The notes: generated from the letters alone by a model not told the origin. A stretch of DNA of 64,000 bases from Nitrososphaerota archaeon (GCA_016190055.1 JACPRH010000049.1:7820-71819), one strand, 5' to 3'; counted from the first letter of the stretch, positions 1 to 19,187 are shown. Program-made: numbers and translations.

Positions 1-718
1 GCAAACTATAGCCCAAAAGAGTCTTGGAAGGCTCCTCTGCAACAGGCGTGATTGCGAAGAACCCGTGCTTTCTTAAGCCCAGCAAAAGAACCGTCATCGC
101 TAAAGGAGATAGATAGGGCACAATATTGAGACCCCCCAGATACTGGGCTAAACCAAATGAGTAAAATGCCACACTTAAGATAACAATCCCAACAGATAGG
201 TATTGTATCTGCTGCTTTACTAATGGTGTCTTTGTTGACCGATAGTATCTAAACAGCGCTATGAAGATCAGAATGTCCATAGCGACGTATATCAGACCTA
301 TGCCAGCTGGATGTATATACGGGGTCAAAGACCCCCGCCCCCCTATCCAACCTGTCAGCGTAAGTCGAGCCTTTCCAAGAACAAGATCCGGATCAAATAT
401 TAACGACCCCCACCAAAAAAGCGCATACCCGTAAGCACCAAACAGTGTAATCAGTTGTGTTTTGCTTAGCCTTGGGCTAACAAAACTAAGAATGAAGTGG
501 TAAATCAATATCATCTGGATAGGAAACCCGAAAAAGTTCCCCCACCAAATTCTTGCAAGAAACTCCTCAGCGCTATTCGACAGCTGCGCCCGAAAAGATG
601 CAGAGAAAAGAAGAACCATTAGAATCAACCAAACTATGAAAATCCAATGATGCCTCTTCTTCCACGGCATACGGATAGCATACGCGACCACCAGCAGTGA
701 CGCTACTATTGCCACCAA
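1..718 (-). CDS. Multi-pass membrane protein, HisKA_7TM-like N-terminal sensor region; truncated by the window edge
   Basis: Not in the ORF track. Manual translation is open from the in-frame stop at 776-778 to position 1, with several hydrophobic segments, ...RYYRSTKTPLVKQQIQYLSVGI... and ...GLRKHGFFAITPVAEE... Start uncertain (TTG at 718 or CTG at 766). Confidence 0.6.
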   Translation of the reverse strand, partial: MVAIVASLLVVAYAIRMPWKKRHHWIFIVWLILMVLLFSASFRAQLSNSAEEFLARIWWGNFFGFPIQMILIYHFILSFVSPRLSKTQLITLFGAYGYALFWWGSLIFDPDLVLGKARLTLTGWIGGRGSLTPYIHPAGIGLIYVAMDILIFIALFRYYRSTKTPLVKQQIQYLSVGIVILSVAFYSFGLAQYLGGLNIVPYLSPLAMTVLLLGLRKHGFFAITPVAEEPSKTLLGYSL

Positions 719-908
719 ATACCCGATAGAGGCTGGGTTAAGGGAAAAAGTGTCCGTGTGGCGCAGTTGTAATGCCTAGCGTTTAAGGATTTCACCGATG
801 TCAGAGCATTCTGTTCCATTACCGAGTAGCCGCGCCGAGCAATAAGTATACGCACCTGAAGATGAAACATCACCATAATTTACAAATTTAATATCAATTT
901 GACGCAAT

Positions 909-953
909 ATATTTAATGCGGTCGACGGTTCTTGAACTCTATTAGGTTCAAAT
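909..953. repeat. att-like site 1 (tRNA-Gly 3'-end-like sequence plus inverted repeat)
   Basis: ATATTTAATGCGGTCGACGGTTCTTGAACTCTATTAGGTTCAAAT; shares TGCGGTCGACGG...TTGAAC with the tRNA at 49219. Confidence 0.9.
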
Positions 954-1037
954 TCATCTCCGTCTATTATTCTCAAGCCCCGTATCATAAGGAGTAAGAT
1001 TAGAGTTGCATAATGGAATTCACAGAGAATGTAATCC

Positions 1038-1295
1038 TTATTTCAGCAGACCGATAAACTCTTCTTTGGTCAGGCCTGAGTCTTTGATTATTTGTAGGAG
1101 GGTACCTGGCTTCATCTCATCATGCCTTGGAACGGTCACTAGTCTCTTACCATCGGTGACATAAATGTGGCTTCCGCGTTGATGGATAGGATTGTAGCCA
1201 CGTTCGTGTAGCGCCTTTAACACATCTCTCCAAGAAACGACGGGTAGGCGTTCACTACTGCCTTTCTTAGAGGGTGATTTCAACAGGCTCGGCAC
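1038..1295 (-). CDS. hicA: HicA-family toxin (mRNA interferase)
   Basis: RLPVVSWRDVLKAL...QRGSH...VTVPRHDEMKPGTLLQIIKDSGL pattern; start position uncertain. Confidence 0.85.
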   Translation of the reverse strand: MPSLLKSPSKKGSSERLPVVSWRDVLKALHERGYNPIHQRGSHIYVTDGKRLVTVPRHDEMKPGTLLQIIKDSGLTKEEFIGLLK

Positions 1296-1497
1296 CCTTT
1301 GCTTCCTTCTTCATCATAATTTGCCTTGCCTCTAGATAGCCTTTGATAGCCTCTCTGATGTTTGTTAAAGCTTCGTCTCTGGTCTCCCCTTGGCTGATAC
1401 AGCCAGGTAATTCAAGAACCCAAGCTGAGAATCCTCCAACACGCTCCTTGCTGAGCATTACAGTGAACTTACGACCTTCAACAGTAGCCTTTTTCAA
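1267..1497 (-). CDS. hicB: HicB-family antitoxin (short form)
   Basis: GGFSAWVLELPGCISQGETRDEALTNIREAI motif; adjacent to hicA. Confidence 0.85.
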   Translation of the reverse strand: MKKATVEGRKFTVMLSKERVGGFSAWVLELPGCISQGETRDEALTNIREAIKGYLEARQIMMKKEAKGAEPVEITL

Positions 1498-1704
1498 CCG
1501 GCCTCACCCACTACAATGGAAAGCCATCTCACTAATTAATTTGTTTACCCAAGCCGATAATTCTGTTGCGCTTTCATGCAGTATGTGCTCATCCATCTAT
1601 GGAACCAATCGATAGCGAAACAAAATCAAAATTAACAACCAATTAAAACAACCAAGAATGAGTATAACCGTAAGTTACATGGTATATTGCTGGTTTTATA
1701 CAAA

Positions 1705-1749
1705 ATATTTAATGCTGTCGACGGTTCTTGAACTCAATTGAGTTCAAAT
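1705..1749. repeat. att-like site 2
   Basis: ATATTTAATGCTGTCGACGGTTCTTGAACTCAATTGAGTTCAAAT; contains the perfect 20-bp palindrome TTGAACTCAATTGAGTTCAA. Confidence 0.9.
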
Positions 1750-2049
1750 CCATAATTCGTAGCCCGATCAGAGTGCGAAAGTTAAGTTAATTGTTTCCGT
1801 AAAACTAGAGCAGACCTGAGCGGCTGGCGCCCCGTACTCTTTAACAGATTCATGTTGCCTTTTTGAAATTGACATATCCAAACTAGGGCCCCTTCTCTAC
1901 GACTATCGAGTGTTAAGATAAAACCTTGGGAGAACATGTGCTATTTCGATTGTGCATGTGCAAGCTTATCTGCTCTGCGTGAATATCTGACAATAAACTA
2001 GGGTCGGTCTTAATATTTGCGATAACAAAACATCTAAAAAGATTTCATC

Positions 2050-3315
2050 ATGATAATTGGACAGAGATACATTTCTTCGCTAAATATATATTATAGTACT
2101 GCTCGACTATCAAACGAGAATTTTATGGCATCAGCGTCCCATGTTAAAGTCAAGAATACAACTGGAAAGAAAGCTTCTGACCTGCATATAACATTCGGTT
2201 TTACGGGAGGCTCGCTTAAAATTGACCCTTCGTCGATTTCTCCCCCTGACGGAAATAACCCGCCCAAAGTACCCTCAAACGACAAGAACTCGACCAATGA
2301 AGGTGTGATTGAGTGGTCATCACCAGTTGTACAACCTGGAGATACAGTAGAGTTTGATGCGACCACTGAGTTTGGGCCGCTGCAATTCATATCGGGCTAC
2401 TGGACTGGTCCCAACGGCAAGCGACAGCGAGACAATATTGGACCGGTGGACAAAGACAGTATAGAAGTCACCTCAAAAGAGAGTCATCAGCTGGAACCAA
2501 TTGGAGCGCTACGGGAAGTCAATGCGGTCTTGGCTGGGATTGATAATTTGACTCTCAGCCATACAAACGTGCCACTAGATGAACTCCCAGAGGGTGTTGA
2601 CCAAAGTGTGCTTCTCGCGAAGATGATGATAGATCTGGGTAGGTTCCTTGAGGGTGCGGGAGGAATCATTCTACTTCAAGGCAAACCCAAGAAACCCGCT
2701 GACGCGCAAGAGGCAAAGAAGAGGACGGCCAAACAGGACTTAAAGGATTTCCTAGACCGGGTCAAAGAGAAGATTGACGAATCTAAGCTGAGTGAAGACG
2801 AAAAGAGGAGGCTCAAGGAAAAGATAGATGAAGCAAAGCGGGAACTTGATGCGTGCACCAATGAAGGCCTAGAGGCAGCTGGTAAAGCGCTGAAAGAGGT
2901 ATATGACCAGCTAAAAGCAGCTAATGAGGAGGAGAAGGATAATGAAAAGAAAGAGCATACCAATGAGATTATTAACGATCTTGGGGTGTCTCAGACTTAT
3001 GCTACAATGATACTGATAAAATCCCAATGGAAAATAAGAAAACTTGGAGCTGATACCGGATACGGAGTACGTGATATAAGCATCATAGAAAGAGATGGAA
3101 AATGTTTTATCAGGGTCCAGGCAATCAAGCCAGAAGGCTATACTCTTGGTATACCACATGGGAAGGCGGACGCGTCTCCACCGCCAATTGAGGTCAAGAA
3201 TGACCAGTGTGGTGAAGCAAGGAGATTGATTGAGGAACTGAAAGCGAAGATAGAGCGATGCGACTATCCCAACCTCGATGATGCGAGGAGGATTTGGGCA
3301 CTCATAGACCCTTAG
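2050..3315 (+). CDS. Hypothetical protein (beta-rich N-terminus, charged helical middle)
   Basis: 421-aa ORF; true start may be the Met at ~2125; no family recognised. Confidence 0.6.
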   Translation: MIIGQRYISSLNIYYSTARLSNENFMASASHVKVKNTTGKKASDLHITFGFTGGSLKIDPSSISPPDGNNPPKVPSNDKNSTNEGVIEWSSPVVQPGDTVEFDATTEFGPLQFISGYWTGPNGKRQRDNIGPVDKDSIEVTSKESHQLEPIGALREVNAVLAGIDNLTLSHTNVPLDELPEGVDQSVLLAKMMIDLGRFLEGAGGIILLQGKPKKPADAQEAKKRTAKQDLKDFLDRVKEKIDESKLSEDEKRRLKEKIDEAKRELDACTNEGLEAAGKALKEVYDQLKAANEEEKDNEKKEHTNEIINDLGVSQTYATMILIKSQWKIRKLGADTGYGVRDISIIERDGKCFIRVQAIKPEGYTLGIPHGKADASPPPIEVKNDQCGEARRLIEELKAKIERCDYPNLDDARRIWALIDP

Positions 3316-3333
3316 GAAAGATGTCCGGATAAG

Positions 3334-5355
3334 TTGAGAAAGAAAGACAGTGGAGAAACAAAAGAATGGTCGCCCAACAAGTCAACTGAAGACACAAGCA
3401 GGCAGCCGGCGACCAGTATCGTAGAACAATCGATTTTCGATATGAGAGAGGGACTCCTAAAACATCTCAAGAATGAAATAAGAGCGCGCAAAGATTCTAA
3501 GCCGCGGCGGGGCGAACGATCAGTTCCCTGCATTAAGGAGCTGACAAGGACTATTGAGAAGGCTCCGCTAGAGGAATGGATTGTATCTGATTATCCTGGA
3601 GAGGATTGGCCGCCACATGTTCCCAGAGGGCCGCCACCACGGATAAGGTCAGAGAAGTTCTGTTATGTCACGCCGCTAGTTGATGGTGAAGAGATTTACA
3701 AGAGCTTGTATGATGATCTCGTCCAAGCTGCTCAGACTGCCAAGCACATCTTTATCGCTATGTGGCAGCTGGAAACAGATTTTGTAATAGAAAAGCCTCC
3801 TGAAAAATTACTGGCGCAGTTCATTACCGATGCGCTAGCTAACAATCCTGATCTCCAAGTCTACATACTGCTGTGGAGACCTCCTTGGGTTTCCCCCGCA
3901 GGTGTTTCCGTTGTGCCTGTCCCGAACCTCAGCGATCCATTGAAAAATTTTCTTGAGTCAACAATCGGACCCCAAGCTACTACCCAGCTGCTTGCGAGAT
4001 TCCGATTCCTAGCGAGGTTGAACCTAAATGGCATCCTAGGCGAGGTTCCTGGAATATTTGACTCAAGCAGGTTCAGCAATCAACAGACATCTAGCAGGTT
4101 ACACGTGGCTTGGAACGACAATATTGACCCTAAGCCGCCTAAAACTCTTGATGCTATCAGGGGTTCCCACCATCAGAAGTTCGTGTTGATGGATGTTCCA
4201 GGCGATGGTGCCTCGTTGCACTGTCTTGGCTTGAACTTCGCGAATATCTACTGGGATAGTATCAACCACGCTCCAACTCCCTACCCAAGACCACATCATC
4301 CCAAGGAAGAAAACTCTTGGCACGATACAGGAGTGCGAGTGGTGGGACAACCTATACATGAATTTGAGATGGAGTTCAGGAGGAGGTGGGAGAATGCTAC
4401 TGGGACTCCTCTACGCCCAACTTCAAGTCAGTACTTCTTCAACTACTCGCCTACACATGGGCATGTACCGACATTTTCAAAGTTCAACAAGGAAAGAGCT
4501 GGCTCTAAAGAAGTCAACACATGGTACTATGACGCAATTTCTTCAGCTGAGCGATACGTATATCTTGAGAATCAGTACTTCTCGATTGAAGCGCCCGCGA
4601 ATGCACTAGTTGACAGGTACCTTCGACTGGAAAGGGCTGGAAAGAAGCTAGATGTAGCTGTTGTTCTACCTCACCCCAGCGTTATGTCGCCCTTTCTGGA
4701 AGTCCCGAAAAGCCAAGAGAACGTCACGTACATGCGACTCGCCACCGCGAACGAAATCTGGTATCGAGATGTATTCGGCACGCTAAAGATGGTTAGGCGA
4801 CCCAAAGGCGGATGGCGCAGTATAAGGATTGGAACAATACTAGGGATCAAGTTTGTGGAACTTGGCCGGGGCGCCAATACAAAATATCTCTTCAAGGTTG
4901 AGAAAACAATTGGTGGGATAAGAGTCTACGCAATGGTTCGTCCAGGAGCCTTGAAAACGAAGAAAGTTCTGGGAAAGAAGATTGTTCTCCGGGAACCAGT
5001 ATGGGTGTACGTCCACTCAAAGGCATGCGTAGTAGATGACACTTACACTATCGGATCCTGCAACATCAGCAAACAGTCTTTCGAAATCGATTCGGAAGCT
5101 AACGTGGTTGTAGACGACAAGGAGGAGACAGCTAGACTGCTAACAAAACTCTGGCCGCCTCTACTAGGAAGTAAGACAACAAAGAATGTGACTACAGCCG
5201 ACACAGGAGTTTGGTTAAAGGAACTGGATAATTCAGCTCGCAGGAATATGCGGGATATAAAAAACAAGGTCAACCCGACCGGAATGCTCGTCGACTATCC
5301 CTACACTATACCTAGCCGCCTAACCCTTGACCTAATCGATGCTTTGGGAATATAA
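3334..5355 (+). CDS. Phospholipase D superfamily protein with two HKD motifs
   Basis: SHHQKFVLMD and YVHSKACVVDD motifs, plus WHDTGVRVVG, YVYLENQYF and TIGSCNI. Confidence 0.85.
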   Translation: MRKKDSGETKEWSPNKSTEDTSRQPATSIVEQSIFDMREGLLKHLKNEIRARKDSKPRRGERSVPCIKELTRTIEKAPLEEWIVSDYPGEDWPPHVPRGPPPRIRSEKFCYVTPLVDGEEIYKSLYDDLVQAAQTAKHIFIAMWQLETDFVIEKPPEKLLAQFITDALANNPDLQVYILLWRPPWVSPAGVSVVPVPNLSDPLKNFLESTIGPQATTQLLARFRFLARLNLNGILGEVPGIFDSSRFSNQQTSSRLHVAWNDNIDPKPPKTLDAIRGSHHQKFVLMDVPGDGASLHCLGLNFANIYWDSINHAPTPYPRPHHPKEENSWHDTGVRVVGQPIHEFEMEFRRRWENATGTPLRPTSSQYFFNYSPTHGHVPTFSKFNKERAGSKEVNTWYYDAISSAERYVYLENQYFSIEAPANALVDRYLRLERAGKKLDVAVVLPHPSVMSPFLEVPKSQENVTYMRLATANEIWYRDVFGTLKMVRRPKGGWRSIRIGTILGIKFVELGRGANTKYLFKVEKTIGGIRVYAMVRPGALKTKKVLGKKIVLREPVWVYVHSKACVVDDTYTIGSCNISKQSFEIDSEANVVVDDKEETARLLTKLWPPLLGSKTTKNVTTADTGVWLKELDNSARRNMRDIKNKVNPTGMLVDYPYTIPSRLTLDLIDALGI

Positions 5356-5605
5356 CAACGTCCCCACGCAATGTTTTCTCGATCACAGCACAACTCCATA
5401 TGGAGAGGAGTCGGGACATCATCTAGCCCGCGAGGCTTGTGCCCACAGTTACCTCAAGTATCTGCTGCTCACTTCCTTTGATAGTAGAAAATCTATCTCA
5501 GAATAGAAAGGTGCTCTTCTACTCATCTGACGTAGGCGAATAAAAAATAGCTGAACTAATAGTAATCATTCGCCTTTTTCAATTACTTCATTAATATTGT
5601 GTAAG

Positions 5606-5650
5606 ATATTTAATGCGGTCGACGGTTCTTGAACGCAATTAGGTTCAAAT
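5606..5650. repeat. att-like site 3
   Basis: ATATTTAATGCGGTCGACGGTTCTTGAACGCAATTAGGTTCAAAT. Confidence 0.9.
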
Positions 5651-6199
5651 ACCAAGCCAATCAGGCCCTCGTTAGTCGTGAAGGCTCAAAGCAGGAACTC
5701 AGCCCAAATATTTGGGCACAAACTCTCCTAAGAACGTTTAGATCTGGCTTCTCTAACCCCAATTTTAATGGGGATGGTGGGATATTCCTTCACGAAAAAG
5801 CGTGGAAATGGAAAGCTAATCCTGATGTAGGTGGTAGCAGCAAGTGGGAGTCGATGGACTTGAATCCGACTTATTCAAGTCACAAAGACTATCCCGATAT
5901 GAACAATTCTATGATACTTCTCTTTCTCGTCATTTCAGCAATCTCGTAGACTATAAAGTATGGTGAACTCTCGACAGGGTTGACGGATTTGACACATTGC
6001 CTAGGTTCACTGCTTGTAAAGACATCTTAGCTTGACTAGCTATACGTCATATTTCGAACCGGTGGTCTAGAACCAGTTAGCTTCGGTGGTCCTGCTGGGA
6101 CTCATGAAGTGCATTGATTGTCGGATTTGGATTTTGGAAGTAATCTTTTCAATAAGATGATCTTTGTGGATTCTTTCTATCAGTACCACCTAAAGGTAG

Positions 6200-7063
6200 C
6201 TAACCAATGTATAGACCTCCATTTATATCTATAACATGGCCTGTTATGTAATTTCCATCTTCTGAGACTAGATATGCCACCGCTCCTGCCACCTCGGATG
6301 GCTTCCCAAGTCTTCCGAGAGGTACTTGGGCAAGAATTTTTTCCATTATTTTTTTGGGAACCGATTTTAGCATATCTGTCTCAATGTATCCTGGTGCTAT
6401 TGCGTTCACCGTTATGCCAGTTCCTGCAAACTCTTTTGCCAGCGTTTGTGTAAGAGCTATCATTCCTGCCTTTGAGGCGGCATAGTTCGCCTGTCCGCGG
6501 TTACCTATTCTTCCGATAACCGAGGATATATTCACGATTCTACCATAACGCTGCTCCAACATGCCGGCTAAAACTGCTTTAGTGCAGTAAAAAGTTCCAT
6601 TTAGGTTCACAGATAAGACGTCTGTCCACATTTCGTCAGTCATTTTTAAAAAAGATTTATCTCGAACTATTCCGGCGTTGTTAACAAGAATATCTATTTT
6701 TCCGAACTTATTGATCACTTCATCTCGCATCCTGTTTACCTGCTTAAAGTCACTAACGTTTGCTTGACATATTATAGAATGCGTGCCCATGGAATCTATT
6801 AACTCTGATACTTCTTTCGCATGCTCTTTTGTTTCCATCTGATCTATGAAATGGTATAATATACCAATTTCGTCAATCGTGCCTATCTGGTCTACAATCT
6901 TCGACACTTTCTCAGCTTCCTCTTTGGTTGACTGATAAATAATGGCAATATCTGCACCCTCTTTCGCCAGTCGCAAAGCAATCGCTTGACCTATTCCCCT
7001 TGAACCTCCTGTAATTAGGGCGACTTTATTTTCTAACCCTAGATTCTTTCCCATATTATTCAT
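6200..7063 (-). CDS. phaB: Acetoacetyl-CoA reductase / FabG-like SDR
   Basis: [19 protein letters not shown] motifs; lies in the PHA cluster. Confidence 0.8.
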
Positions 7064-8247
7064 CTCTTTACTACCACGGCGATACCTTGACCTCCTCCGA
7101 TACAGAGAGTTGCTAAGCCATACGTGCCTTTCCTTCTTCTTAATTCATTCAGAAGTGTAACCAGTATTCTTGTACCACTTGCTCCTATGGGATGCCCAAG
7201 AGCAATTGCACCTCCGTTCACATTTGTCTTGTCGGGGTTCAGACCAAGTTCTCTAATAACAGCGATGCTTTGCGCTGCAAAAGCTTCGTTGAGTTCTATC
7301 AGGTCTAACTTATCTAGAGTTACGCCGGCACGCTCTATTGCTTTTTTGGCTGCATAAACAGGACCCATACCCATTATTTCAGGAGGGACTCCACAGTATC
7401 CATAGCTTTTGATTGTAGCCAAAGGTGTAAGTCCTTTCTCCTTCGCTTTTTCTTCAGACATCAAAAGAACTGCAGCAGCCCCATCACTTATGCCTGATGA
7501 GTTGCCAGCAGTTACTGTTCCGTTATTCTTGAATGCAGGCTTTAGTTTTGCGAGAATCTCTTTTGTTGTGCCGAACCGGGGGGACTCATCTGTGTCAAAG
7601 AGAATAGGCTCGCCTCTTGGTTGAGGAACGTCCGTTGGAATAATCTCTTCTTTGAAAACACCATCTTTGATTGCAGCTTCGGCCTTATTCTGGCTTTTTG
7701 CTGCAAATTCATCCTGCTCTTCCCTTGTAACATTGTATTTTTCTGCAACATTCTCTGCTGTAATTCCCATATGATAATTATTGAAAACATCCCACAGCCC
7801 GTCAGATACCATTAAATCAATAATTTCATCGTTGCCCATTCTCACTCCCCAGCGGGCTTTTTTCAGGGCATATGGAGTCTGTGACATGGATTCTACTCCG
7901 CCGGCCAGAATAACATCTGCATCACCAAGCATGATGGATTGAGCTGCCAGCACAACTGACTTCAAACCCGAACCGCATACTTTGTTCACGCAATAAGAGG
8001 GCACCTCTTTTGGAATTCCCGCTCCAATTGCAACCTGCCTTGCCATATTCTGGCCGTGACCTGCAGAAAGAACATTTCCTAAGACAATTTCATTGACATC
8101 ATCTGCTCCAACATTCGCCCGTTTCAGGGCGTCTTTCGAAACAACGGAACCAAGTTGTATAGGACTGAGATCCTTCAGAATTCCCCCGAATTTTCCAACA
8201 GCAGTTCTTGTTGCAGATACAATAACTACATTATTCATTCTTTTCAC
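7060..8247 (-). CDS. phaA: Acetyl-CoA acetyltransferase (bacterial-type biosynthetic thiolase)
   Basis: [22 protein letters not shown] and LCIGGGQG motifs. Confidence 0.92.
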
Positions 8248-8298
8248 CTATTTGATAGAGATTTTCTTCATTCATTCAGTCCATTTTTATCATAAATA

Positions 8299-9078
8299 TT
8301 ATATTGCTAGTCCTCCATCCACGCAAAGCACTGCACCATTAACAAATTTCGATTCATCTGAAGAAAGATACAGATATGCATAGGCTACATCTTTTGCTTC
8401 ACCCAGCTTGTGCAGAGGAGTTTTTTCTTTGAACATTTCAAGAAGTTTTTCAGGCACATTTGAGGTCATCGGGGTCATTATAAATCCAGGCGACACTGCA
8501 TTGACTCTTATCCCTTTTTTTCCTAGTTCCTTGGCCAGACTCTTTGTTAAGCCGATGACACCAGCTTTGGTTGCAGCATAATTGGTCTGGCCAATATTGC
8601 CGAATATTCCTGTTATAGAGGCTGCGTTTATAATTACGCCATTCCCCTGGTTTATCATGGCTTCAACCACTGCCTGGATGCAGTTGAAAACACCTTTAAG
8701 ATTGACGTTAATGACCTTGTCCCACTGTTCCTCTGCCATTTTTGTTACAAGAGCATCTTGAGTAATACCGGCATTATTTATCAGAATATCGATTCTGCCG
8801 TATTTCTCCACAATCTCTTTAGCCAGCTGTTTAGATTGTTCCCTGTTTGTCACATCTAATTTGAAGAAAAATGCATCGCCTCCTTTGTTCCTAATCTCGT
8901 TTACTGTTTCCTCACCACCCTTTTCAATTATATCGGCGACAATAACTTTAGCTCCTTCTTCTGCAAACAGAAGCGCAGTCGCTTTACCTATACCGCTTCC
9001 TGCTCCTGTAATAATTGCAATCTTATTTTCAAGTCTCATTATTATGTTCCCCTTGGGTTGTAGTTCTTTTTTGTTCAC
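8299..9078 (-). CDS. Second SDR, 3-oxoacyl/acetoacetyl-CoA reductase
   Basis: TGAGSGIG, NNAGITQD, YAATKAG; probable start at the Met near 9039. Confidence 0.85.
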   Translation of the reverse strand: MNKKELQPKGNIIMRLENKIAIITGAGSGIGKATALLFAEEGAKVIVADIIEKGGEETVNEIRNKGGDAFFFKLDVTNREQSKQLAKEIVEKYGRIDILINNAGITQDALVTKMAEEQWDKVINVNLKGVFNCIQAVVEAMINQGNGVIINAASITGIFGNIGQTNYAATKAGVIGLTKSLAKELGKKGIRVNAVSPGFIMTPMTSNVPEKLLEMFKEKTPLHKLGEAKDVAYAYLYLSSDESKFVNGAVLCVDGGLAI

Positions 9079-10192
9079 GCGACTTTGCTGATACGGGCTT
9101 CTCTTTTCCTGCTTCAGCGAAAAGAGACCTTGGTTTTAGCCACTCTGCGATCTTTGGGCAGACCTCTCTCTGGGATTTTGAGCCTACAAAGATACCTATA
9201 TGTCCAGTGTGAAAAACCAGTGTCTCTTCATCTGAACTTGATACCGCGTCATTCAGTGGTTTACTTGCGTCATTTGGAACAAGGTGGTCGAACTCAGCCA
9301 TGACATTAAGCAGAGGCATGGATATCTTTTTCAAATTAATCTTTTTTCCATCAAGAACCATCTTGTTTTTGATGAGGAGATTATTCTGGTAGCAGTCCTT
9401 GACAAACTGCCTCAGGGTTTCACCTGGCTGGTCTGGACTGTCGAATATCCATTTCTCCATTCTAAGGAAATTCTTGACGGTTTCTTCATTTCGAGACTGG
9501 CAAGCTGTATCATTCGGTTCGCATTCGATTCGATCAATAAGACCTACATACTTGTCAATCATAAGTCTGAATGGGTCTGTGAGCAGGAATCCTGCATTCA
9601 AGATATCTCCGGGTACTATCCCGTAGTAGTCCACGATTTTGTCCACATCTAAACTCTTTGCCCAGATGTGGAGAAGCCCTTTGTCCGTATCAAAGTTTAC
9701 AGGAGTCACTAGAGTGATAAGATTCTTCACCTTTTCAGGATTTAGTGCGGCATACATCACGGAGAAGGTTCCTCCCTGGCATACTCCGAGCAATGTGATC
9801 TTATCTACCCCAGATCTTTCCCTAATCTTATCCACTGCATTATTTATGTACCCATTCACATGATCGTCGATTGTAAGATATTTACTAATACCTGAGGGAT
9901 AACCCCAATCAATGATATAGACATCAAACCCATTATCCAGTAGCTTCTTCATCACACTTTTATCAGGCTGGAGATCCAGAATGTAGTACCGATTTACAAG
10001 TGCGTAAACTACTAGTATTGGAACGGGATATGGTTTTTTTACAGTTGGGATATAATGAATGAGTTTCATCTTGTCTTCAGTGTAGACAATCTCGGCGGGA
10101 GTTGTTCCAACCGAAAAATCAGGGGATTGCAAGAACAGTTCCGTACCGTGTTTGAATTTCTCAAAAAATTCAATTGATTCAAGTTTATTCAT
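9029..10192 (-). CDS. phaC: Class III poly(3-hydroxyalkanoate) synthase subunit PhaC
   Basis: YALVNRYYILDLQPD, lipase box GVCQGG (catalytic Cys), DHLVP (Asp), GHIG (His), RMEKWIFDSPD. Confidence 0.93.
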   Translation of the reverse strand: MNKLESIEFFEKFKHGTELFLQSPDFSVGTTPAEIVYTEDKMKLIHYIPTVKKPYPVPILVVYALVNRYYILDLQPDKSVMKKLLDNGFDVYIIDWGYPSGISKYLTIDDHVNGYINNAVDKIRERSGVDKITLLGVCQGGTFSVMYAALNPEKVKNLITLVTPVNFDTDKGLLHIWAKSLDVDKIVDYYGIVPGDILNAGFLLTDPFRLMIDKYVGLIDRIECEPNDTACQSRNEETVKNFLRMEKWIFDSPDQPGETLRQFVKDCYQNNLLIKNKMVLDGKKINLKKISMPLLNVMAEFDHLVPNDASKPLNDAVSSSDEETLVFHTGHIGIFVGSKSQREVCPKIAEWLKPRSLFAEAGKEKPVSAKSREQKRTTTQGEHNNET

Positions 10193-10760
10193 GGGGCTTC
10201 TCTACTGAAGTATTGGTTTTTTCAGACGTCTCTTTGATTTGTTTAGTTAACTCTTTTACTATTTTCTTAAGGGAATACAGTTCTTTGTTTATCTCATCGA
10301 TTTCTGTCCTAGTGGGTAGATTCATCGGTTTAAGATAATTCTCTTCAAGTATATCTCGGGTATATTTCTGGAAATCCATGAAATATGACATTAGTTTCCC
10401 GTTGTCCGAAGCATAATTGTCTGATTTCAGAAATTCCTTGAAAGTCTCGCTATATGTCTCAATCCATATTCTGTAAAAATCTCTATATTTTTCAGGACTG
10501 TTTTCCCCATCCATCTCGGTTGTTGTCTTTTCACTCATATTGTGCATTGCTTCCATGAATACGCTCTGGGAATTGATATTGGACTTCATCCATGCTGTAT
10601 AAAGATTGACAAAGGTTGAGAACCCCTTCATCATTTTTTCAGATTTTTCGCGCGTTGGACCTAAGGTAGGCATCGCAACTAGCTTACCGAAGGTATCTTC
10701 GTAGATTTTTAACCAAAGGTTGAAGAATTCTTGTGTGTTTTCAGATCCGGATTTTTCCAT
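10185..10760 (-). CDS. phaE: PHA synthase subunit PhaE
   Basis: DFYRIWIE and NLPTRTEIDEINKELYSLKK (PhaE box-like); overlaps the phaC start. Confidence 0.8.
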   Translation of the reverse strand: MEKSGSENTQEFFNLWLKIYEDTFGKLVAMPTLGPTREKSEKMMKGFSTFVNLYTAWMKSNINSQSVFMEAMHNMSEKTTTEMDGENSPEKYRDFYRIWIETYSETFKEFLKSDNYASDNGKLMSYFMDFQKYTRDILEENYLKPMNLPTRTEIDEINKELYSLKKIVKELTKQIKETSEKTNTSVEKPHE

Positions 10761-10763
10761 TTT

Positions 10764-11849
10764 TTAGGACTTCTTTGTGTGGCCGATATCAGATGTTAGC
10801 CACATATTGTATATCTTATTGAACGTGTCTGCATATATCTTGGCCATGTTCTTCACAGGCTCCATCATCTCTTTTACCGGTCCTACTACGGGCATATCCT
10901 CAAAGAAGTTGAGGAAAGCTTTTTCATACATTTGTACCCATAGATTGTAGAATTCTCCGTATGCCTCTGGATCGGTAGCTTGTTCTGATAGTTCTTTGGT
11001 TTTTTCCACCATTTTCTCAAGCGCTGCCAGCCAAGATTTGTACATGTTTAGATAGATGTTGGTACTCTCTACGAAGCTCTCGAACACATCTTTTGAAGGT
11101 CGTGCAGAGTGTGCATACTTGCCATAAGTCACCCTATATGTGGCTAGCCAGGTATCAAAGAATTCTTTGTAAACTTCAGGACTCGCTTCTCCTCGGGATA
11201 TTTCCATCATTTTTGCAGAAAGCTTCTGCATGGATTCAATCCAGGGTCTGTATAGCTTTGAGTATGTGTTCTTCCACAGTTTTGTCACCTGTGCAAAGCT
11301 CCCTAAGTAGATGTCTGGTATGCCTGTGTATTTTTCAAGTACTTCTTTTGTGCTTTCCATTAAGGGTGTTGTGAGAATTGCATCAAGTATTTTTTCATAA
11401 GACTTTGCCCATGTGTCAGAGATTTCTTTGAATTTTACAGGATCTGGAGTGCCTTGCAGTATTTCTTTTGTCTTGCGAGAATTCTCTTCTAACTCGGCTA
11501 TCCACGACATGTAGACTTTATTTGATTCCTCTGCACTTGATATGAATTTCTCAAGCACGTCTTTGTTGGGCGTTATTTGTTGTATTGGATAGAATTTACC
11601 AAAGGTATTCTGGTATTTTTTAGTCCATTCCTCATAGAATTCTTTGTATTTCTGAGGCGTAGCTCCTTTCAAGAGTTCAGCTGCCTTCTCAAACTCCTCT
11701 CCAGTAGATTCAAGCAAGGGCTTGTATAACGTGGAGTAGGAATCCATCCACATTTTTGAAACGTTTGTATAGCTGTCAGCCCACGTCTTGAAAATATCTT
11801 TCTTCTCTTCGTTCAAACCTTCTTTTCCTTTATCATTATTTTCTGCCAT
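10764..11849 (-). CDS. PhaE-like repeat protein (possibly granule-associated)
   Basis: Four P-x-x-Y/F-x-E-F/I-x-x-x-W helical repeats similar to a segment of the neighbouring PhaE; first gene of the operon. Confidence 0.55.
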   Translation of the reverse strand: MAENNDKGKEGLNEEKKDIFKTWADSYTNVSKMWMDSYSTLYKPLLESTGEEFEKAAELLKGATPQKYKEFYEEWTKKYQNTFGKFYPIQQITPNKDVLEKFISSAEESNKVYMSWIAELEENSRKTKEILQGTPDPVKFKEISDTWAKSYEKILDAILTTPLMESTKEVLEKYTGIPDIYLGSFAQVTKLWKNTYSKLYRPWIESMQKLSAKMMEISRGEASPEVYKEFFDTWLATYRVTYGKYAHSARPSKDVFESFVESTNIYLNMYKSWLAALEKMVEKTKELSEQATDPEAYGEFYNLWVQMYEKAFLNFFEDMPVVGPVKEMMEPVKNMAKIYADTFNKIYNMWLTSDIGHTKKS

Positions 11850-12073
11850 AATAAATCACTTGTTTTATGTAACAGTTGATGTAGAGGAGTCACTTATAAA
11901 GGTTTAAATTATTTTAAATATTTAAAAAAAGTGAGTGTATTTTAATGATGATTCTTTAACTATTTTTGTCGTTTTTTGGAGTTCGACAGCGACGTCGCCG
12001 AACCCGTCTCAGAAGGGTGATCCCGCAATCCAAGCCGTACAAAGCTGAAAAAGATGTGCCGATGGCTCTCAAA

Positions 12074-12118
12074 GGGTTAAATGCGGTCGACGGGACTTAA
12101 TCTCAATTGAGTTCAAAT
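12074..12118. repeat. att-like site 4; probable distal att of the 37-kb element
   Basis: TGCGGTCGACGGGA (12082-12095) is identical to the tRNA 3' end (49219-49232), followed by CTTAATCTCAATTGAGTTCAAAT as in sites 1-3. Confidence 0.9.
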
Positions 12119-12159
12119 CCACAATTTGTAGCTTGGTTAGTAATGTGCAGATTACGAAA

Positions 12160-12507
12160 TTAATCCGGCTTTATTATACCTGCATTGATTTTCTTTGCTG
12201 TATTATACGCGTCGTAAATATTGTATATCCAGAACAAGGGATATAATATAAGTCCAATGAGCACAAACATCGTCAATATAAAAATAATCCCAATTACGAT
12301 GAAGGCTATTCCTTTACCTATCTGCCCATTATAGATTTGCCCTAAACCAACAAAGAAAAATGACAAAACAGCTGCAATTCCTGTGCTTTTCCTTTCAACA
12401 TTAATTGGCGCCTCTTTAACTCTGACGCCGCACTTTGGACAGATCTCTGCGTCTTTATCTATTTCTGCCCCACAATGCTGACAGAATTTTGACGCCTTTT
12501 GAGCCAT
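12160..12507 (-). CDS. Zinc-ribbon plus TM2-like membrane protein
   Basis: FCQHCG...ICPKCG and AAVLSFFFVGLGQIYNGQIGKGI. Confidence 0.8.
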   Translation of the reverse strand: MAQKASKFCQHCGAEIDKDAEICPKCGVRVKEAPINVERKSTGIAAVLSFFFVGLGQIYNGQIGKGIAFIVIGIIFILTMFVLIGLILYPLFWIYNIYDAYNTAKKINAGIIKPD

Positions 12508-13133
12508 TTAGCTAAATGGCACACCGTCATCCATATAAACTTTTAATATTATGAGACCGACACCATTAAGTTAAGATACATGGAATTTGCTCGTTTTACT
12601 GGATGCCAAAGACTGTCCCGAATGGGGCATGGGAGAACCCACCCCTAATGAAATTGATACAGGGCTGAGAGGAATAGATTTACTGCATTTTGTTTACAAT
12701 GTTTGCAACACGTCTATTGTAAAACTAGTGGAGATGACGTATGCTACTTCTCCAAAGAAATAGAAGCCACCATATAGTAACCAATTAATTCTTCTGTGAA
12801 AGAGCGAAAACAAATTTCGTCAACTCTTCAGCAATACAAAAAATAGATTTATATATACACACAGAGGTACATAAAGCGTGTCAACGATCTTCCGTTAGAG
12901 AACCGTATAGGCGGACTAGGAAGATAGTTCTGACTTTTTTCATCTCAGCGGCGTGGATACTCCCTTCCCTGCTGTTATACATCGGATCATACAAGCCAGA
13001 ACCTGAAGGGGATATCGAATTATCACTGATAATGGGGTTCTCAATAGCGCTATTTGTTATTCACTTTTGCAGATTTATTTTTTGGATGAACCGAACCCTA
13101 TTTAGCTCTTTTGAGAATTGATTGCAGTTTATC

Positions 13134-13301
13134 TTACGCAAGCCTCAGCCAAGTTAACGCCTTCGCCACAAACTCCTCCGCATCCATCTCTTCAGGCTCG
13201 ACCAGCAAGACCTGTCTGAGAACGTGATTCTTCTCCAGCTTAAGTGCCATCTCTTTCAATGGTTTGATGTTCACTTTTTTCTTCGTTAGTGACTGAGCCA
13301 A
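13134..13301 (-). CDS. Small hypothetical protein (55 aa), last gene of the ced-like operon
   Basis: Below the track cut-off; manual translation MAQSLTKKKVNIKPLKEMALKLEKNHVLRQVLLVEPEEMDAEEFVAKALTWLRLA; starts 17 bp after the upstream stop. Confidence 0.6.
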   Translation of the reverse strand: MAQSLTKKKVNIKPLKEMALKLEKNHVLRQVLLVEPEEMDAEEFVAKALTWLRLA

Positions 13302-13318
13302 TCGTAAATCGCCTCTGT

Positions 13319-14620
13319 TCAGTTACCCTCCAGCATAGCCTCAGGCGAAACATCCACTACATCCGCCACCTTCTCGACTATCGGCCAGATCTTCTCTATC
13401 GACTTTTGTGTGATTTCCTCCGGCAGAGTGTATCGCGCTGCACTTGGTGAGTTGTCCTTCAGATGGAACAGTCTCTCCACTGATTGGATTCGTCCTTTGA
13501 TTGGTGCTATTCTTCCGACTGTTATTGTGTTGGATTTCGATGGCGCTGGAATTGCTTCTACGTTATGCGGAAGCTGGGTCTGGTCTAATGCCTCGTAGAA
13601 ATCTCTAGCCTTGAAGTTGCCTACAGCGAAGACATACTGTGGATATCCTATTTCAGCATCAATCAGTCGTGCGCTTGGATTGAACAGGACTTTCTGAAGC
13701 ATATTCGACAGCATGCTCACTGTTGATGTCCTGTCTCCTGTCTTCCTCCATGACCTCTTCCAAGTCCTCCGAACTATCATTGGCTCGTCAAGAACTGAAA
13801 TCGATAGGAATCCGTTCGAGGCATTGAGCAGCGTCTTGAGAATGTCGCCAGGCCCAGGTAGGCTAGAGTCATAGGTATAGGCAGTCATGGATGCAAGCAG
13901 AGTCTTCAGCGCCAGTTCGTCCTGCTTCTGCACCGGTCGATGCATTGTAGCCAGATTATTGTCAGTCAGTATCCAGCCTTTGTAGCCGTATTTCTTCGAT
14001 GCCAGCATCAACGGGAACGTTTGCCTGAATATCGGAATGGAACTGGGCTCCCTCGGAATAGCAGTGAACCCAAGCTTCAATCCCTCTAATCCTTGTGCTG
14101 CTTCTTCGTGGTTCAACACCCATTGATATGGCGGGTGTCCTCCTGACAGACTGGTGAATTTGAGGCGTATGGCAGTGTTTCCTCCGCACTTCATGTCGTG
14201 TGCTTTGGCTTCGGCTACCCCTTCCCTGATTATGCGGTAGTCTCGCTTGACGCTCTTCGCGCACTCTAGCAGGTCCCTGTTGAACCCCAGCCTGTCCGAG
14301 CCACGCAGAGGATGGAAGAATGCCTTGAACTGGTATCTCTGAAGCGGATGCCTCATCTTCTGCCGCCATTTCCTGTTCAATGCTCTAGTTGCTGCCACTG
14401 CTGTATGGATGCTGTTCAGGTTTGCATCGAAGGCGAGTGCGTATGATGCGTATCGGCTGGCTCCTGATTGGACAGCAAGCCTTGCAAGTTTCACCGATGC
14501 CTGTGTGCCGAGCGTTCCCATCGCACTTGAGGAATAGAACCTGAGCTGTTTCTGAAAGTCCATGCTCTCCATCGGCTTGGGGTCTTCATCCCTCACCACT
14601 AGGCTAGTCATCTGCTTCAA
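13319..14620 (-). CDS. Hypothetical protein overlapping the end of the cedB-like gene
   Basis: 433-aa ORF overlapping the ATPase stop; no family recognised. Confidence 0.7.
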   Translation of the reverse strand: MKQMTSLVVRDEDPKPMESMDFQKQLRFYSSSAMGTLGTQASVKLARLAVQSGASRYASYALAFDANLNSIHTAVAATRALNRKWRQKMRHPLQRYQFKAFFHPLRGSDRLGFNRDLLECAKSVKRDYRIIREGVAEAKAHDMKCGGNTAIRLKFTSLSGGHPPYQWVLNHEEAAQGLEGLKLGFTAIPREPSSIPIFRQTFPLMLASKKYGYKGWILTDNNLATMHRPVQKQDELALKTLLASMTAYTYDSSLPGPGDILKTLLNASNGFLSISVLDEPMIVRRTWKRSWRKTGDRTSTVSMLSNMLQKVLFNPSARLIDAEIGYPQYVFAVGNFKARDFYEALDQTQLPHNVEAIPAPSKSNTITVGRIAPIKGRIQSVERLFHLKDNSPSAARYTLPEEITQKSIEKIWPIVEKVADVVDVSPEAMLEGN

Positions 14621-17345
14621 CCTCCCAGTGAAGGTAAGAGGATACCTCTGTGACTAGGATTCTGCTGTCGCTGATATTATGCTCTCCGAGTTTCTTCCTG
14701 AACTTTTCCGACTGCCCCTTGCTCAAACACAGGATGATAACTTTCTCAAATCCGTGTTTCAGATTCTTGGTGATGTTCTCAATGTTGAAGTCTCTAGTCT
14801 CTAGCTCGATTGCAACTTTCTCGTCTACGACCATATCCGTGAGCTTTCCTTCGCCTAACGGGAACTCGATATCGACGGCGTGACCTTCTTCTCTGAACCG
14901 CTTGGCAATCACCGCGAGCAGATTCTCATGCAGGTTTCCTCCGAATCTCCGTGATTTGCTGGTTCCAAGGAATCGTCTGCCCTTGTCGGTCAATGCTAGA
15001 ATCTTGCCCCATCTGCCCTCGCCCTCGACCCTCGGCATCTCCTTGGCTTCAATCAGCTGAAGTTTCTCTAGTTCCTGTTTGGCTTTGTCACCTTGTGATG
15101 GAGATAATCCCAGTTTTGCGTAATGCTCAGTTACCTTTAGTGTTGGGTCTGATGCAGCGTTCTTGAGTAGTTTGGTGGCTGTTAGAGACAATATGGGGGA
15201 CTGTATATGGGTCTGTCTGGATGGGACTGGAGTATTATCGGGATTGGGCTGAGTGAGAATATTTTCGAATTTTCCAATCGGGGCTTGAGTTGGAACACTT
15301 TGGTCAGAATAATCCGATTTCATGTTATTTTGTACTTGGACAGTAAACGATGGTTCTTCTACTAGTGAAACATCTACTGTAGTTCCGCATGATGTTGATT
15401 CCACTGTTTCCATCTCGACTCTGACGAAGAAAGGGCGAGGGTCTATGCTCAGTTTCAGCAGCGCTTCTCCGACTGGCAGGTTCTTCAGCCGCATTACCTC
15501 TGATTCTGTCAGTCCGTACTTATGTCGGAAGAACTCGGTGTAGCGTGGGTTGTCTGTCCTGTGGATGACCGCTGTTCCAGCATTGCTCAGGATAGGTTCG
15601 GCTGTATCTCCCAAGTCCTGTGAAGAGACGAAAAGGCTGTATCCGTACTTCCTGCCTTCCTTGATTATCTTGACCGGGATGCTGTCTTCGTGCTTGCAGA
15701 GTTTCCAAGCCTCGTCAAGAACAAGTATCAGCTTGATTTGTTTCCTCTCGCCAGCGATTCTCATAGTGCTGTCAACATATTGAAGCACCACATACGCCAC
15801 TAGATTCTGCACCTGCTCGCTTGCTATTCCTGAAAGGTCTACGCACACAAACCCGTTCATCAAGTCTTGGTAGGATATCTTGGATTTTCCGAAGATTCCG
15901 AAAGTGCCTTCTGCAAGCGGGACAAGCTTGTCCACGATGGATGTCAGGATATTCTGCCGCTGCTCAGTAGCCTTGTACACGTCCGATTCGATTAACTTGA
16001 CAACTTCTGCTAATGTCGGGGTCGGGTTCTTCCATGTTGTCGGATCGTCTTTCCGGTAGCCTTTCTTCTCGTAAGCCCTAGCAACGTATTGTGCGAACAT
16101 TCTCTTCTGATTGGTGGTGTTAAAGTCGCATGCTCCTGCGAATGCGTCTGTAAGCTGCTGGATCTTGTTGGCTAGGCTGAGAGGACCTAGGTCGAATGGG
16201 TCGATGGTAACATTCTGCGCATCGATTACTTTCCCGCCTCTGCTAATTACCCAGTCCTTGTACTCGCCTGCAAAGTCAATGATTAGGATGTTTGTCTCAT
16301 GGAGGTCATGCTCTCTGGAAAGCAGGCTCTTGACTGTTGTAGATTTTCCTCCTCCAGTCTCACCTAGCACAGTTACGTGCGGGTTGATGTATTTCGAGAG
16401 TCCGATGAACACTGGTGCGTCACCGCTTGTCCTGCCGAGATATGCTCCTTCCAAGAGCTTGGATACGGGTGGCAGTTTTGGCTTGGTCAATGGTACGAGA
16501 TACGCAAGATCCCATGTCAGCATCCTCGACGGCTTGGAAACTTTGGTCATTCCACAAGCAGGAAAAAATTCCCTGACCGCCTTGAGCATCTCATGATTCT
16601 GTAACCTCTTTGCATCTATACCCAGCCCGGATTGCAGCGTGGACATCAGAGTCTTTACGTTTGAATCAATCTCTCGCGCTATTTCCGATTCATCCTTGCC
16701 TTCAGCCATCACGTGAAGAAGGAATCCAACATCTCTTGCACCCTCACCTTCAAGCAACCTTTGTGCGAGCTTTTCCAGCCGCTTCAGCCTAGCCTGTCTT
16801 GATGGGTCTGCTACGTTGCCTTCAGCCTCTAGGGTCAATCTGAGGTCGGATATCTTGCTGCTGATGTCTTTGAGATACCATTCCTTTGGAATCGGGGACA
16901 TGCGTGGGATGATTTCGAACGTGAAATTCAAGTTGCTGAGAAGTCGGACGAAGTTCTGTACAAAGTAAAATTTCCTGTCTTTATCCAGATCGTCTATCAC
17001 GTATGGGACTTCAGTGATTCTGACATACGCATGTCCGACCTTGGTGTTCTTCTCGCTTACAGTAAGGATATGGTTTCCTTTCGGCGTAATTGACTTTATC
17101 CCGAGAAGTTTAGCAAGTTCGTTTTCTGATTCTATCGGCTTTTCATGTTTGTTGATTTTGTAATTCAGCCATCCCCGAGATTTTACGAGCACTGCTCCTG
17201 TTACAACTAATGCAATCCCTAATCCTAGTAATGTTAGCGTGCGACCTTCGAATGTTATTCCTTCCCTGCTAGCAACTGCGGCTAGAGACGAAATCACTGC
17301 GAGCGACAGGGCGACTATGAACATGCCTTTGTATCCGGATATCAT
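14604..17345 (-). CDS. cedB: VirB4/HerA-type ATPase, CedB-like, with N-terminal TMs and a C-terminal HTH plus nuclease-like extension
   Basis: Two N-terminal TM segments; NPHVTVLGETGGGKS (Walker A), LVLDEAW (Walker B), KEGRKYG, SSQ; follows cedA-like genes. Confidence 0.75.
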   Translation of the reverse strand: MISGYKGMFIVALSLAVISSLAAVASREGITFEGRTLTLLGLGIALVVTGAVLVKSRGWLNYKINKHEKPIESENELAKLLGIKSITPKGNHILTVSEKNTKVGHAYVRITEVPYVIDDLDKDRKFYFVQNFVRLLSNLNFTFEIIPRMSPIPKEWYLKDISSKISDLRLTLEAEGNVADPSRQARLKRLEKLAQRLLEGEGARDVGFLLHVMAEGKDESEIAREIDSNVKTLMSTLQSGLGIDAKRLQNHEMLKAVREFFPACGMTKVSKPSRMLTWDLAYLVPLTKPKLPPVSKLLEGAYLGRTSGDAPVFIGLSKYINPHVTVLGETGGGKSTTVKSLLSREHDLHETNILIIDFAGEYKDWVISRGGKVIDAQNVTIDPFDLGPLSLANKIQQLTDAFAGACDFNTTNQKRMFAQYVARAYEKKGYRKDDPTTWKNPTPTLAEVVKLIESDVYKATEQRQNILTSIVDKLVPLAEGTFGIFGKSKISYQDLMNGFVCVDLSGIASEQVQNLVAYVVLQYVDSTMRIAGERKQIKLILVLDEAWKLCKHEDSIPVKIIKEGRKYGYSLFVSSQDLGDTAEPILSNAGTAVIHRTDNPRYTEFFRHKYGLTESEVMRLKNLPVGEALLKLSIDPRPFFVRVEMETVESTSCGTTVDVSLVEEPSFTVQVQNNMKSDYSDQSVPTQAPIGKFENILTQPNPDNTPVPSRQTHIQSPILSLTATKLLKNAASDPTLKVTEHYAKLGLSPSQGDKAKQELEKLQLIEAKEMPRVEGEGRWGKILALTDKGRRFLGTSKSRRFGGNLHENLLAVIAKRFREEGHAVDIEFPLGEGKLTDMVVDEKVAIELETRDFNIENITKNLKHGFEKVIILCLSKGQSEKFRKKLGEHNISDSRILVTEVSSYLHWEVEADD

Positions 17346-17530: not shown

Positions 17531-17531
17531 C

Positions 17532-18404: not shown

Positions 18405-18410
18405 ATCTTC

Positions 18411-18665: not shown

Positions 18666-18669
18666 CTTC

Positions 18670-19053: not shown

Positions 19054-19187
19054 GAGAAACAGAAAGAAAGGATACTTACGAAAACTTGACTGGAATTCAT
19101 CTATTTATTGTTAGGATTTCGTCAATTGTAACATCAACAATGAGTGTAAGATTCACACTGGTGAGTTAGAGCCAAGAAAGAAGAAAT

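Follow-up and report, generated by a model that had tools for sequence, protein, structure and literature searches.

In bacteria, ICEs (integrative and conjugative elements) and IMEs (integrative and mobilizable ones) have been described to accrete in tandem at tRNA 3' ends together with cis-mobilizable elements (CIMEs), the latter being seen as decay products (PMC5704250). In the same line, 15 of the 31 Dehalococcoides islands found at ssrA are described without an integration module (PMC3146451). As for the Thaumarchaeota, their integrated elements are reported to have attachment (att) sites with a median length of 17 bp, down to 8 bp, and targets in the 3'-distal part of tRNA genes, and those carrying a tyrosine recombinase form arrays by site re-use (PMC6563490). 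The locus considered here belongs to a groundwater archaeon of the Nitrososphaerota (source genome G000) and lies in a 64,000-nucleotide stretch, G000:C32:7820-71819, hereafter the window, to which all coordinates refer unless a contig is named. In this window, four copies of a tRNA-Gly 3' end bound compact modules devoid of recombinase genes, and a tyrosine integrase, IntA, is encoded next to the tRNA. The array probably arose by tandem accretion at the tRNA 3' end via integrases of the IntA clade, the integrase-free modules having been moved with, or by, a helper element. It is regarded here as an archaeal counterpart of bacterial island stacking, and not as the integron-like array that an earlier note on this DNA, the original prediction, had proposed.

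Each site spans 39 bp and consists of the last 12 bases of tRNA-Gly followed by a 27-bp element-side arm with a 20-bp palindrome. The sites and the tRNA gene are the following:

917..955, + strand: site 1, 12-bp copy of the tRNA-Gly 3' end, then TTC and a TTGAAC-N8-GTTCAA arm
1713..1751, + strand: site 2, 12-mer with one mismatch, perfect 20-bp palindrome
5614..5652, + strand: site 3, 12-mer exact, palindrome exact
12082..12120, + strand: site 4, far attachment site of a 37-kb ICE-like element
49218..49293, - strand: tRNA-Gly(TCC), the shared core being its last 12 nt (49219-49230)

The 12-mer, TGCGGTCGACGG, occurs exactly at 917, 5614, 12082 and, as the tRNA end, 49219, and with one mismatch at 1713, always on the + strand. 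With up to two mismatches allowed, seven matches are obtained against 2.17 expected, a number that none of 100 shuffled sequences attained; the two-mismatch copies at 43181 and 58042 are without an arm. The inverted repeat TTGAAC-N8-GTTCAA occurs without mismatch at 932, 1728 and 5629 and with two mismatches at 12097; taken alone at two mismatches, the palindrome is a weak statistic, one of 100 shuffles having reached nine matches. Besides, the flank ATATTTAA is common to sites 1-3, the flank CCAyAATTyGTAGC is common to sites 2 and 4, and the intervals between sites 1 to 4 measure 796, 3901 and 6468 bp. These data agree with the original prediction, which had reported four such sites in one orientation, fused to an inverted repeat, with additional shared flanks and with intervals of about 0.8, 3.9 and 6.5 kb. 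Its guess that the array continues beyond the left edge was correct as well, a fifth site being located at C32:786, 7950 bp further left and outside the window. The scan with a site matrix that it had suggested gave 69-80 bits for the five sites from which the matrix was built, a circular figure, and 4 bits for the next place in 2.2 Mb. No further site was detected between site 4 and the tRNA, and an Rfam scan of positions 1-13000 returned no match. The next-best place of the matrix, G000:C49:3179-3219 (L002), has a full arm and no tRNA 12-mer, lies beside a DUF6998 gene and a nucleotidyltransferase-HEPN pair, and is probably an insertion at a secondary site.

The array itself carries the following genes (PHA, polyhydroxyalkanoate; SDR, short-chain dehydrogenase/reductase; ORF, open reading frame):

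1..916, - strand: end, facing the tRNA, of a 5.8-kb block that lacks an integrase (C32:2946-8735) and encodes DUF835 membrane proteins
1038..1295, - strand: HicA toxin of the 796-bp module (PF07927, E 5e-16)
1267..1497, - strand: HicB antitoxin (PF15919, E 1.6e-7)
2050..3315, + strand: 421-aa ORF of the 3.9-kb module, no Pfam match
3334..5355, + strand: 673-aa PLD-like domain protein (PF13091, E 6e-11)
6200..11849, - strand: PHA operon of the 6.5-kb module (41% GC): phaE, phaE, phaC (class III), SDR, thiolase, SDR

In general, the modules hold one to seven genes, on both strands. No tyrosine-recombinase match at E<=1 was obtained in the three window intervals, as the original prediction had stated, and Pfam scans of the window modules detected neither a serine recombinase nor a transfer gene. 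Regarding the single module that it had assigned to each interval, HicAB and the PHA operon were retrieved, and its "PLD pair" was reduced to one gene, the PLD domain being present in the 673-aa ORF only. The class III PhaC scores above its NCBIfam cut-off; no PhaC was detected in the genus relative G001, whose genome is 95% complete.

From 45 distinct sites, the 39-bp consensus TGCGGTCGMCGG TTC TTRAAC YCAATTRR GTTCAAATHC was obtained, conservation being limited to these 39 bp; the sites were collected with similar patterns that left the central spacer letters free, so that conservation figures are inflated. The N8 spacer is conserved and self-complementary, with its AATT centre at 87-96%. At every locus showing both, the 12-mer of the site matches the local tRNA-Gly variant. 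Read along the tRNA, three letters and a T-loop-like hexamer come before the final 12 nt, and the inner TTGAAC arm is the tRNA-Gly's own T-loop sequence at an identical offset. The three letters beside the 12-mer are TTC on the + strand in 42 of the 45 sites and GAT in the tRNA. This difference indicates that TTC and everything beyond it derive from the incoming element, from which it would follow that the exchange falls in the 12-mer. The palindrome, in which the original prediction had seen the crossover core, was rejected in this role for tRNA insertion: both the TTC versus GAT difference and the natural junctions presented below locate the exchange within the 12 bp copied from the tRNA, and there is no relation between the spacers. 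The idea that ATATTTAA holds a left binding arm was also discarded, this flank not being conserved over the 45 sites (at most 0.41 bits per position). In some lineages (L083:14695-14742, L091:4691-4737, L103, L109), the 12-mer is directly bordered by a second palindromic arm on its opposite side, so that the sites are doubled at a distance of 42-43 bp.

Natural junctions point to the same 12 bases. Parts of window 500-10400 are contained in 20 runs from 10 studies, three of these runs being possible sources, and junctions were read in four of the 20 (four studies) against C32:400-20399, in contigs only and for 24 of 114 loose ends. Contig depth over the modules is uneven, and low depth was not taken as a sign of absence. 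In run X5, the DNA that lies left of site 1, i.e. the block end at 1..916, continues through the 12-mer (to window 928) directly into tRNA-Gly; as only 12 bp are in common, homologous recombination or misassembly is hard to invoke at this joint. At site 4, X5 and X6 pass at base 11 into a different module end, and pieces from X8 and X12 stop at that base too; X6 joins site 3 at its base 5, coming from other DNA, and X5 enters the outer site at base 7. Besides, X5 and X6 skip the 5.8-kb block, and X6 connects the side of HicAB to site 3 with the PLD module left out (joint 1549->5612). Among the loose ends shown, most natural junctions break inside the 12-mer.

Comparison with relatives reveals both an empty site and variable neighbours. 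In the family relative G002, the locus reads EMG1, tRNA-Gly, 60 bp and gene X, while in G003 a site abuts gene X. At the same tRNA locus, G001, from the same genus, has two sites located 6.7 and 7.6 kb from the tRNA and no integrase; their cargo, an ammonium transporter block and a 131-aa ORF, differs from that of G000, where a homolog of the 131-aa cargo is found inside a module at another tRNA. In addition, contig L092 matches site 3 and 2.4 kb of the PHA module at 99.1% identity, but from site 3 on it shows the module end that in G000 lies 10 kb further out (95%). The modules are therefore stacked at the tRNA without a recombinase of their own and vary in content and neighbours between strains, as had been proposed. 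An identical order in all relatives and integrase remnants inside the intervals, which the original prediction had named as observations that would speak against it, were not encountered: the order differs among relatives, and no integrase remnant turned up in these intervals. In L096:4982-5174, a 190-bp insert separates two degenerate sites where the relative L089 has one intact site.

Between site 4 and the tRNA, an ICE-like element with a second integrase is found. The features of this part, together with a module-end flank in the same register, are:

12121..49218, no strand assigned: ICE-like element, 37 kb, from site 4 to the tRNA
47891..49165, - strand: IntA, intact tyrosine integrase (R/K/YxxR/H/Y), candidate cognate recombinase
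49199..49218, - strand: TATA-like motif, 11 nt beyond the tRNA end, before intA
1694..1712, + strand: module-end flank TTTTATAC plus 11 nt, register equal to that of the TATA-like motif before the integrase
39906..41078, - strand: IntB, second tyrosine recombinase with a C-terminal zinc ribbon, overlooked in the original prediction
14604..17345, - strand: VirB4/CedB-like ATPase, below all NCBIfam cut-offs

Besides the VirB4/CedB-like ATPase and the two tyrosine recombinases, the element encodes a HerA-like ATPase, restriction-modification, HNH and OLD-like ATPase proteins, and a Cdc6 that scores below its NCBIfam cut-off. IntA is a 424-aa open frame that starts 53 bp from the tRNA end, so that its gene stays intact after integration. 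Its catalytic residues, R143, K188, Y260-x-x-R263, H290 and Y298 in a 14-sequence alignment, fit the R...YxxR...Y motif of the pNOB8-type (type II) archaeal integrases, with which IntA also has in common the gene left intact after integration and the tRNA target (PMC8371274); IntA differs from them by about 100 extra C-terminal residues, and its assignment to that family is by motif alone. The structure model (pLDDT 86) adopts a tyrosine recombinase fold and resembles structures of XerA, IntI and Cre (15-18% identity), the top matches being archaeal XerA (18%), while a search of solved structures by sequence retrieved no relative. IntA has only weak Pfam and NCBIfam scores and is neither XerA nor IntI by NCBIfam (30 bits versus a XerA cut-off of 220, and no TIGR02249 match); IntB obtains 25 bits against the TIGR02249 cut-off of 265.

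The full-length integrases linked to tRNA-Gly, three proteins, form one clade among 25 homologs (FastTree support 1.0). IntA or its relatives are present in all three recombinase-bearing intervals, namely the 37-kb element of G000, a 14-kb element of G410 (71%) and a 1.56-kb tRNA-Int-site arrangement of G009 (69%, frameshifted). G026 has an IntA relative (60-74%) at tRNA-Gly and its site on another contig. As the IntA clade sits at tRNA-Gly together with the site in other genomes, IntA appears as the best candidate recombinase for the site, which is in agreement with the original prediction. IntB is unlikely to be the cognate enzyme and was set aside, no homolog of it being found beside the site in the other loci searched. 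Finally, a TTTA(T/A)AC motif lies 11 nt past the tRNA end, before the integrase, in autonomous elements and is found at some integrase-free module ends, the flank at 1694..1712 recurring at other module ends in G000, G001 and L092; it is not general among sites. At 49199..49218, this TATA-like motif may serve as promoter and/or binding arm.

On these grounds, the sites would be hybrid attachment sites, one being left by each DNA circle inserted at the tRNA-Gly 3' end by an integrase of the IntA clade. Strand exchange would take place in the 12-mer, probably in the 6-8 bp beside TTC, and the palindrome may be the integrase-binding arm of the donor site rather than the crossover core for insertion. 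Every new arrival would restore the tRNA and shift the older modules outwards. An integrase-free module would reach the tRNA as a composite with an ICE-like helper that is later excised precisely or, by an alternative route, as a separate circle on which the integrase acts in trans; the data are explained equally well by mobilisation in trans and by co-transfer together with the ICE-like element next to the modules. Modules bounded by att sites would still be excised, reinserted or co-transferred given such an integrase, while later loss of a site by deletion would fuse and fix old modules. At G000:C32:2945 (L001), a module-end flank is followed by no site; as other populations have one there, G000 has lost it, two modules being fused into an 8-kb interval.

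The site is distributed unevenly. By pattern search, it was found in 8 of 401 genomes of the class (0/223 and 0/78 in the two largest families), in 12 of 150 genomes of the order and in 21 distinct metagenome contigs (22 rows), and no exact match was found in viral contigs. The site-bearing records (11 stretches) are titled Nitrososphaerota, Nitrososphaerales, Thaumarchaeota, Nitrosopumilales or uncultured archaeon, all the named ones being archaeal, which points to a host within the Nitrososphaerota. A loose pattern gave 14 of 61 genomes, several of which were chance matches without the tRNA-like 12-mer, and G000, G001, G003, G004, G033 and G046 were kept. Among 24 same-orientation intervals from 17 sources, two are doubled sites of 42-43 bp; out of the remaining 22 site-bounded intervals, 19 are without a recombinase at E<=1, and the three that contain one, always of the IntA clade, are all adjacent to the tRNA. 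Nine of the 12 tRNA-adjacent positions are without an integrase. Around 47 sites, recombinase sequence was present in three of 93 flanks of up to 1.5 kb each: these are the gene of G009, a remnant of 50 aa in L125 and a member of a different family in L052.

Compared with the systems described above, the resemblance is closest to CIMEs, i.e. att-bounded elements without integration or transfer genes that are stacked next to an autonomous element at a tRNA 3' end (PMC5704250). The modules are indeed att-bounded and without such genes, they are stacked at a 3' end that is empty in a relative, and an autonomous element of like specificity is present nearby in G000, G410 and G009 (the IntA elements), none being found in G001. 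They differ by their archaeal host, by the rarity of remnants and by the fact that most tRNA-adjacent modules were found without an integrase. As regards a possible origin by decay of an ICE or IME, one clear remnant was counted in the 93 flanks, and module ends have short flanks in common with the ICE-like element. The Dehalococcoides islands share with the array the many direct repeats of an RNA gene 3' end, a conserved element-side motif that marks the crossover and strain-specific cargo, but they are described with a serine recombinase, a tmRNA target, a 20-bp repeat and a 6-gene integration module (PMC3146451), in contrast to the tyrosine integrase, tRNA-Gly, 12-bp core and palindromic arm seen here. 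The tycheposon-seeded islands of Prochlorococcus likewise involve tRNA-specific tyrosine integrase clades, partial tRNAs between elements and newcomers that displace older material, and transient elements have been proposed to carry flanking DNA (bioRxiv 10.1101/2020.12.28.424599). Their integrase lineage and host are different, and leftover material is described there without clear boundaries, whereas sites are intact here; host and gene content argue against membership in this group. As for the Thaumarchaeota elements, section 6 and other passages of PMC6563490 describe neither an array of integrase-free att-bounded modules nor such a palindromic arm. Full-text searches of open papers returned no description of the site or of archaeal integrase-free att arrays.

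Integrons and clusters of attC sites lacking integron-integrases (CALINs), archaeal ones included, also consist of variable modules between repeated recombination sites, often with no integrase nearby (bioRxiv 10.1101/2022.02.06.479319). Here, there is no IntI, no attC fold and no attI by the integrase, insertion takes place at a tRNA, and the modules are multi-gene and in both orientations. Out of five integron features, only one, the variable content and order of the array between strains, was observed, and the entry point is the tRNA 3' end instead of an attI. Eight folds (four sites, both strands) gave short hairpins only, with z from -2.5 to 0. The attC cores are RYYYAAC and GTTRRRY, and by eye the site arms do not fit them. 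The term "integron-like" used by the original prediction overstates the novelty of the array, for which neither IntI nor attC was found, as stacks of islands that are bounded by att sites and lack integration genes have already been described at tRNA or tmRNA genes of bacteria (PMC5704250, PMC3146451).

Modules of this kind are not restricted to tRNA-Gly. In G000, exact copies of the last 12 nt are found downstream of five further tRNA ends, on C35 (two copies), C21, C45, C55 and C30, where 0.05 would be expected for about 30 tRNA ends within 30 kb, and most of these copies have a TTGAAC-like hexamer in matching register. They delimit five modules of 0.7-5.2 kb without a recombinase match and a 26-kb one with an IntA paralog. 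The integrase-free modules, which are located at four other tRNAs, include:

G000:C35:23326-29168
G000:C21:28014-31700
G000:C45:1728-6943
G000:C55:128-4132

Their cargo comprises a second HicAB, ArsR-SQR-DsrE-like genes and a DUF835 paralog and, with labels given by eye from translations, a TnpB-like ORF, a Kdp-like potassium ATPase operon and an AbiE-like pair. Cargo families recur across tRNAs and genomes (ArsR-SQR-DsrE at 43-46%, HicA at 36%). Besides, a block encoding an ammonium transporter, a permease, Lrp and a ribbon-helix-helix (RHH) protein is att-bounded at the tRNA in G001:C14:86685-91807, and its homolog in G000:C23:17944-23171 is inverted, without sites, and at the far end of an island, with 84-89% identity, like core genes. 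The direction of this move could not be fixed, the outgroup contigs being too short or carrying paralogs. Between L091 and L096/L089, a cargo block also changes its orientation with respect to the sites. Finally, in L130:6075-6125 (also L101 and L105), a palindrome lies between the 3' ends of two different, opposed tRNAs, an arrangement that represents one event in three near-identical contigs and looks like an exchange inside the palindrome.

Several of these data weigh against accretion via IntA-clade integrases. The palindrome between two different tRNA ends in L130, L101 and L105 is left unexplained by it, and in one X5 contig the departure from the outer site falls within the palindrome (loose end L123:414). 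Among the contigs, neither an excised circle nor a joint linking a whole module head-to-tail was encountered. The skip of the 5.8-kb block in X5 and X6 has only 28-30 letters on its short side, and the X6 joint 1549->5612 has a depth of 2.8 with unread letters between. Module ends share 83-142 bp at 77-88%, so that homologous recombination could explain some of the strain differences, and the L092 difference could stem from misassembly at a repeat. G001, G003, G004 and G033 carry sites and no close IntA (best full-length match 42%), and their arrays may consequently be inert. The interval census is skewed towards short modules, as short contigs cannot hold long elements, and a 50-aa integrase remnant does adjoin one site (L125), the single clear remnant in the 93 flanks.

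Among the alternatives, the broadest would have deep-branching Nitrososphaerota possess genome-wide, IntI-independent cassettes, a family of tRNA-specific integrases gathering host and foreign operons in integrase-free circles with uniform ends that stack at several tRNAs and trade cargo, with the palindrome as a second core that inverts or re-captures cargo; it is held to be rather unlikely. A purpose-built integron-like cassette system, in which chromosomal genes would be captured in compact integrase-free circles with dedicated ends and reordered by recombination between sites, the palindrome being a second, orientation-free core, is considered improbable. Such a system would account for the 19 of 22 intervals without a recombinase trace and for the near absence of remnants in the flanks, for the often operon-sized modules (0.8-7 kb), for the conserved, self-complementary N8 spacer and for the related cargo at different tRNAs. 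The inverted and site-less ammonium transporter block with core-gene divergence, the inversion between L091 and L096/L089 and the palindrome between opposed tRNA ends keep this reading open. Nevertheless, the tRNA 12-mer is where insertion junctions fall, the modules comprise several genes and occur in both orientations, neither IntI nor attC features were found, and the direction of the ammonium transporter move could not be fixed. Moreover, co-transfer with an ICE followed by excision yields an equal picture with no need for a new system (PMC5704250).

That the array would be made of dead scars, successive ordinary islands having lost their integrases by deletion and being now fixed, with strain differences due to homologous recombination and deletion, seems quite doubtful. 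The remnant in L125, the frameshifted integrase of G009, the missing site at C32:2945, the degenerate sites in L096 and the long flanks shared by module ends would all be expected in that case. On the other hand, sites 1-3 keep a full arm, and the 39-bp site, unlike its flanks, is conserved over at least six family groups, a contrast that the search patterns inflate. In addition, the 12 bp shared at the tRNA junction are too short for homologous recombination, and one module end occupies differing array positions in strains that are about 95-99% identical.

In pdif, or Xer, modules, a host Xer recombinase acts on dif-type sites. That the palindrome would be such a site (11-6-11) used by the host XerA is very improbable: its sequence does allow a reading as two 11-bp arms with a 6-bp spacer between them, and archaeal XerA gives the top structural matches of the IntA model, but the site-bearing G001, G410 and G420 have no PF00589 match above the cut-off, IntA stays at 30 bits where XerA requires 220, and the junctions fall in the tRNA 12-mer, outside the palindrome, the sites always being on a tRNA end in a single orientation.

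Accretion at tRNA 3' ends with a helper element thus being preferred, a lineage-wide site, signs of recent reshuffling and a testable enzyme lift the array above an ordinary island, while the bacterial precedents limit its novelty. It may constitute a route for the gain and loss of whole traits in a little-studied archaeal lineage, the traits concerned being PHA synthesis, ammonium and potassium uptake, a sulfide-oxidoreductase-like module and toxin-antitoxin pairs. The intact integrase, the 12-bp tRNA core and the 39-bp site with its natural variants form a testable enzyme-site pair, which bears on the question, raised for bacteria, of whether integrase-less tRNA islands are decay products or working cassettes. 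Besides, an integrase needing just 12 bp of tRNA sequence could become an archaeal genetic tool.

Some further observations concern the cargo and the surroundings of the sites. The 421-aa ORF and the PLD-domain gene of the 3.9-kb module have no homolog among the other modules compared. Tandem membrane-anchored proteins resembling pyrroloquinoline quinone (PQQ)-dependent dehydrogenases adjoin sites in three genomes (L002:5295-14806, L058 and L059). In G410, two arrays of the tRNA-Gly type face each other, their outer sites (L080:15846 and 16695) being 850 bp apart. Finally, an integrated element of 6.7 kb at G000:C14:30043-36779 encodes a tyrosine recombinase of its own and has, at its borders, a long repeat of the 3' half of a tRNA.

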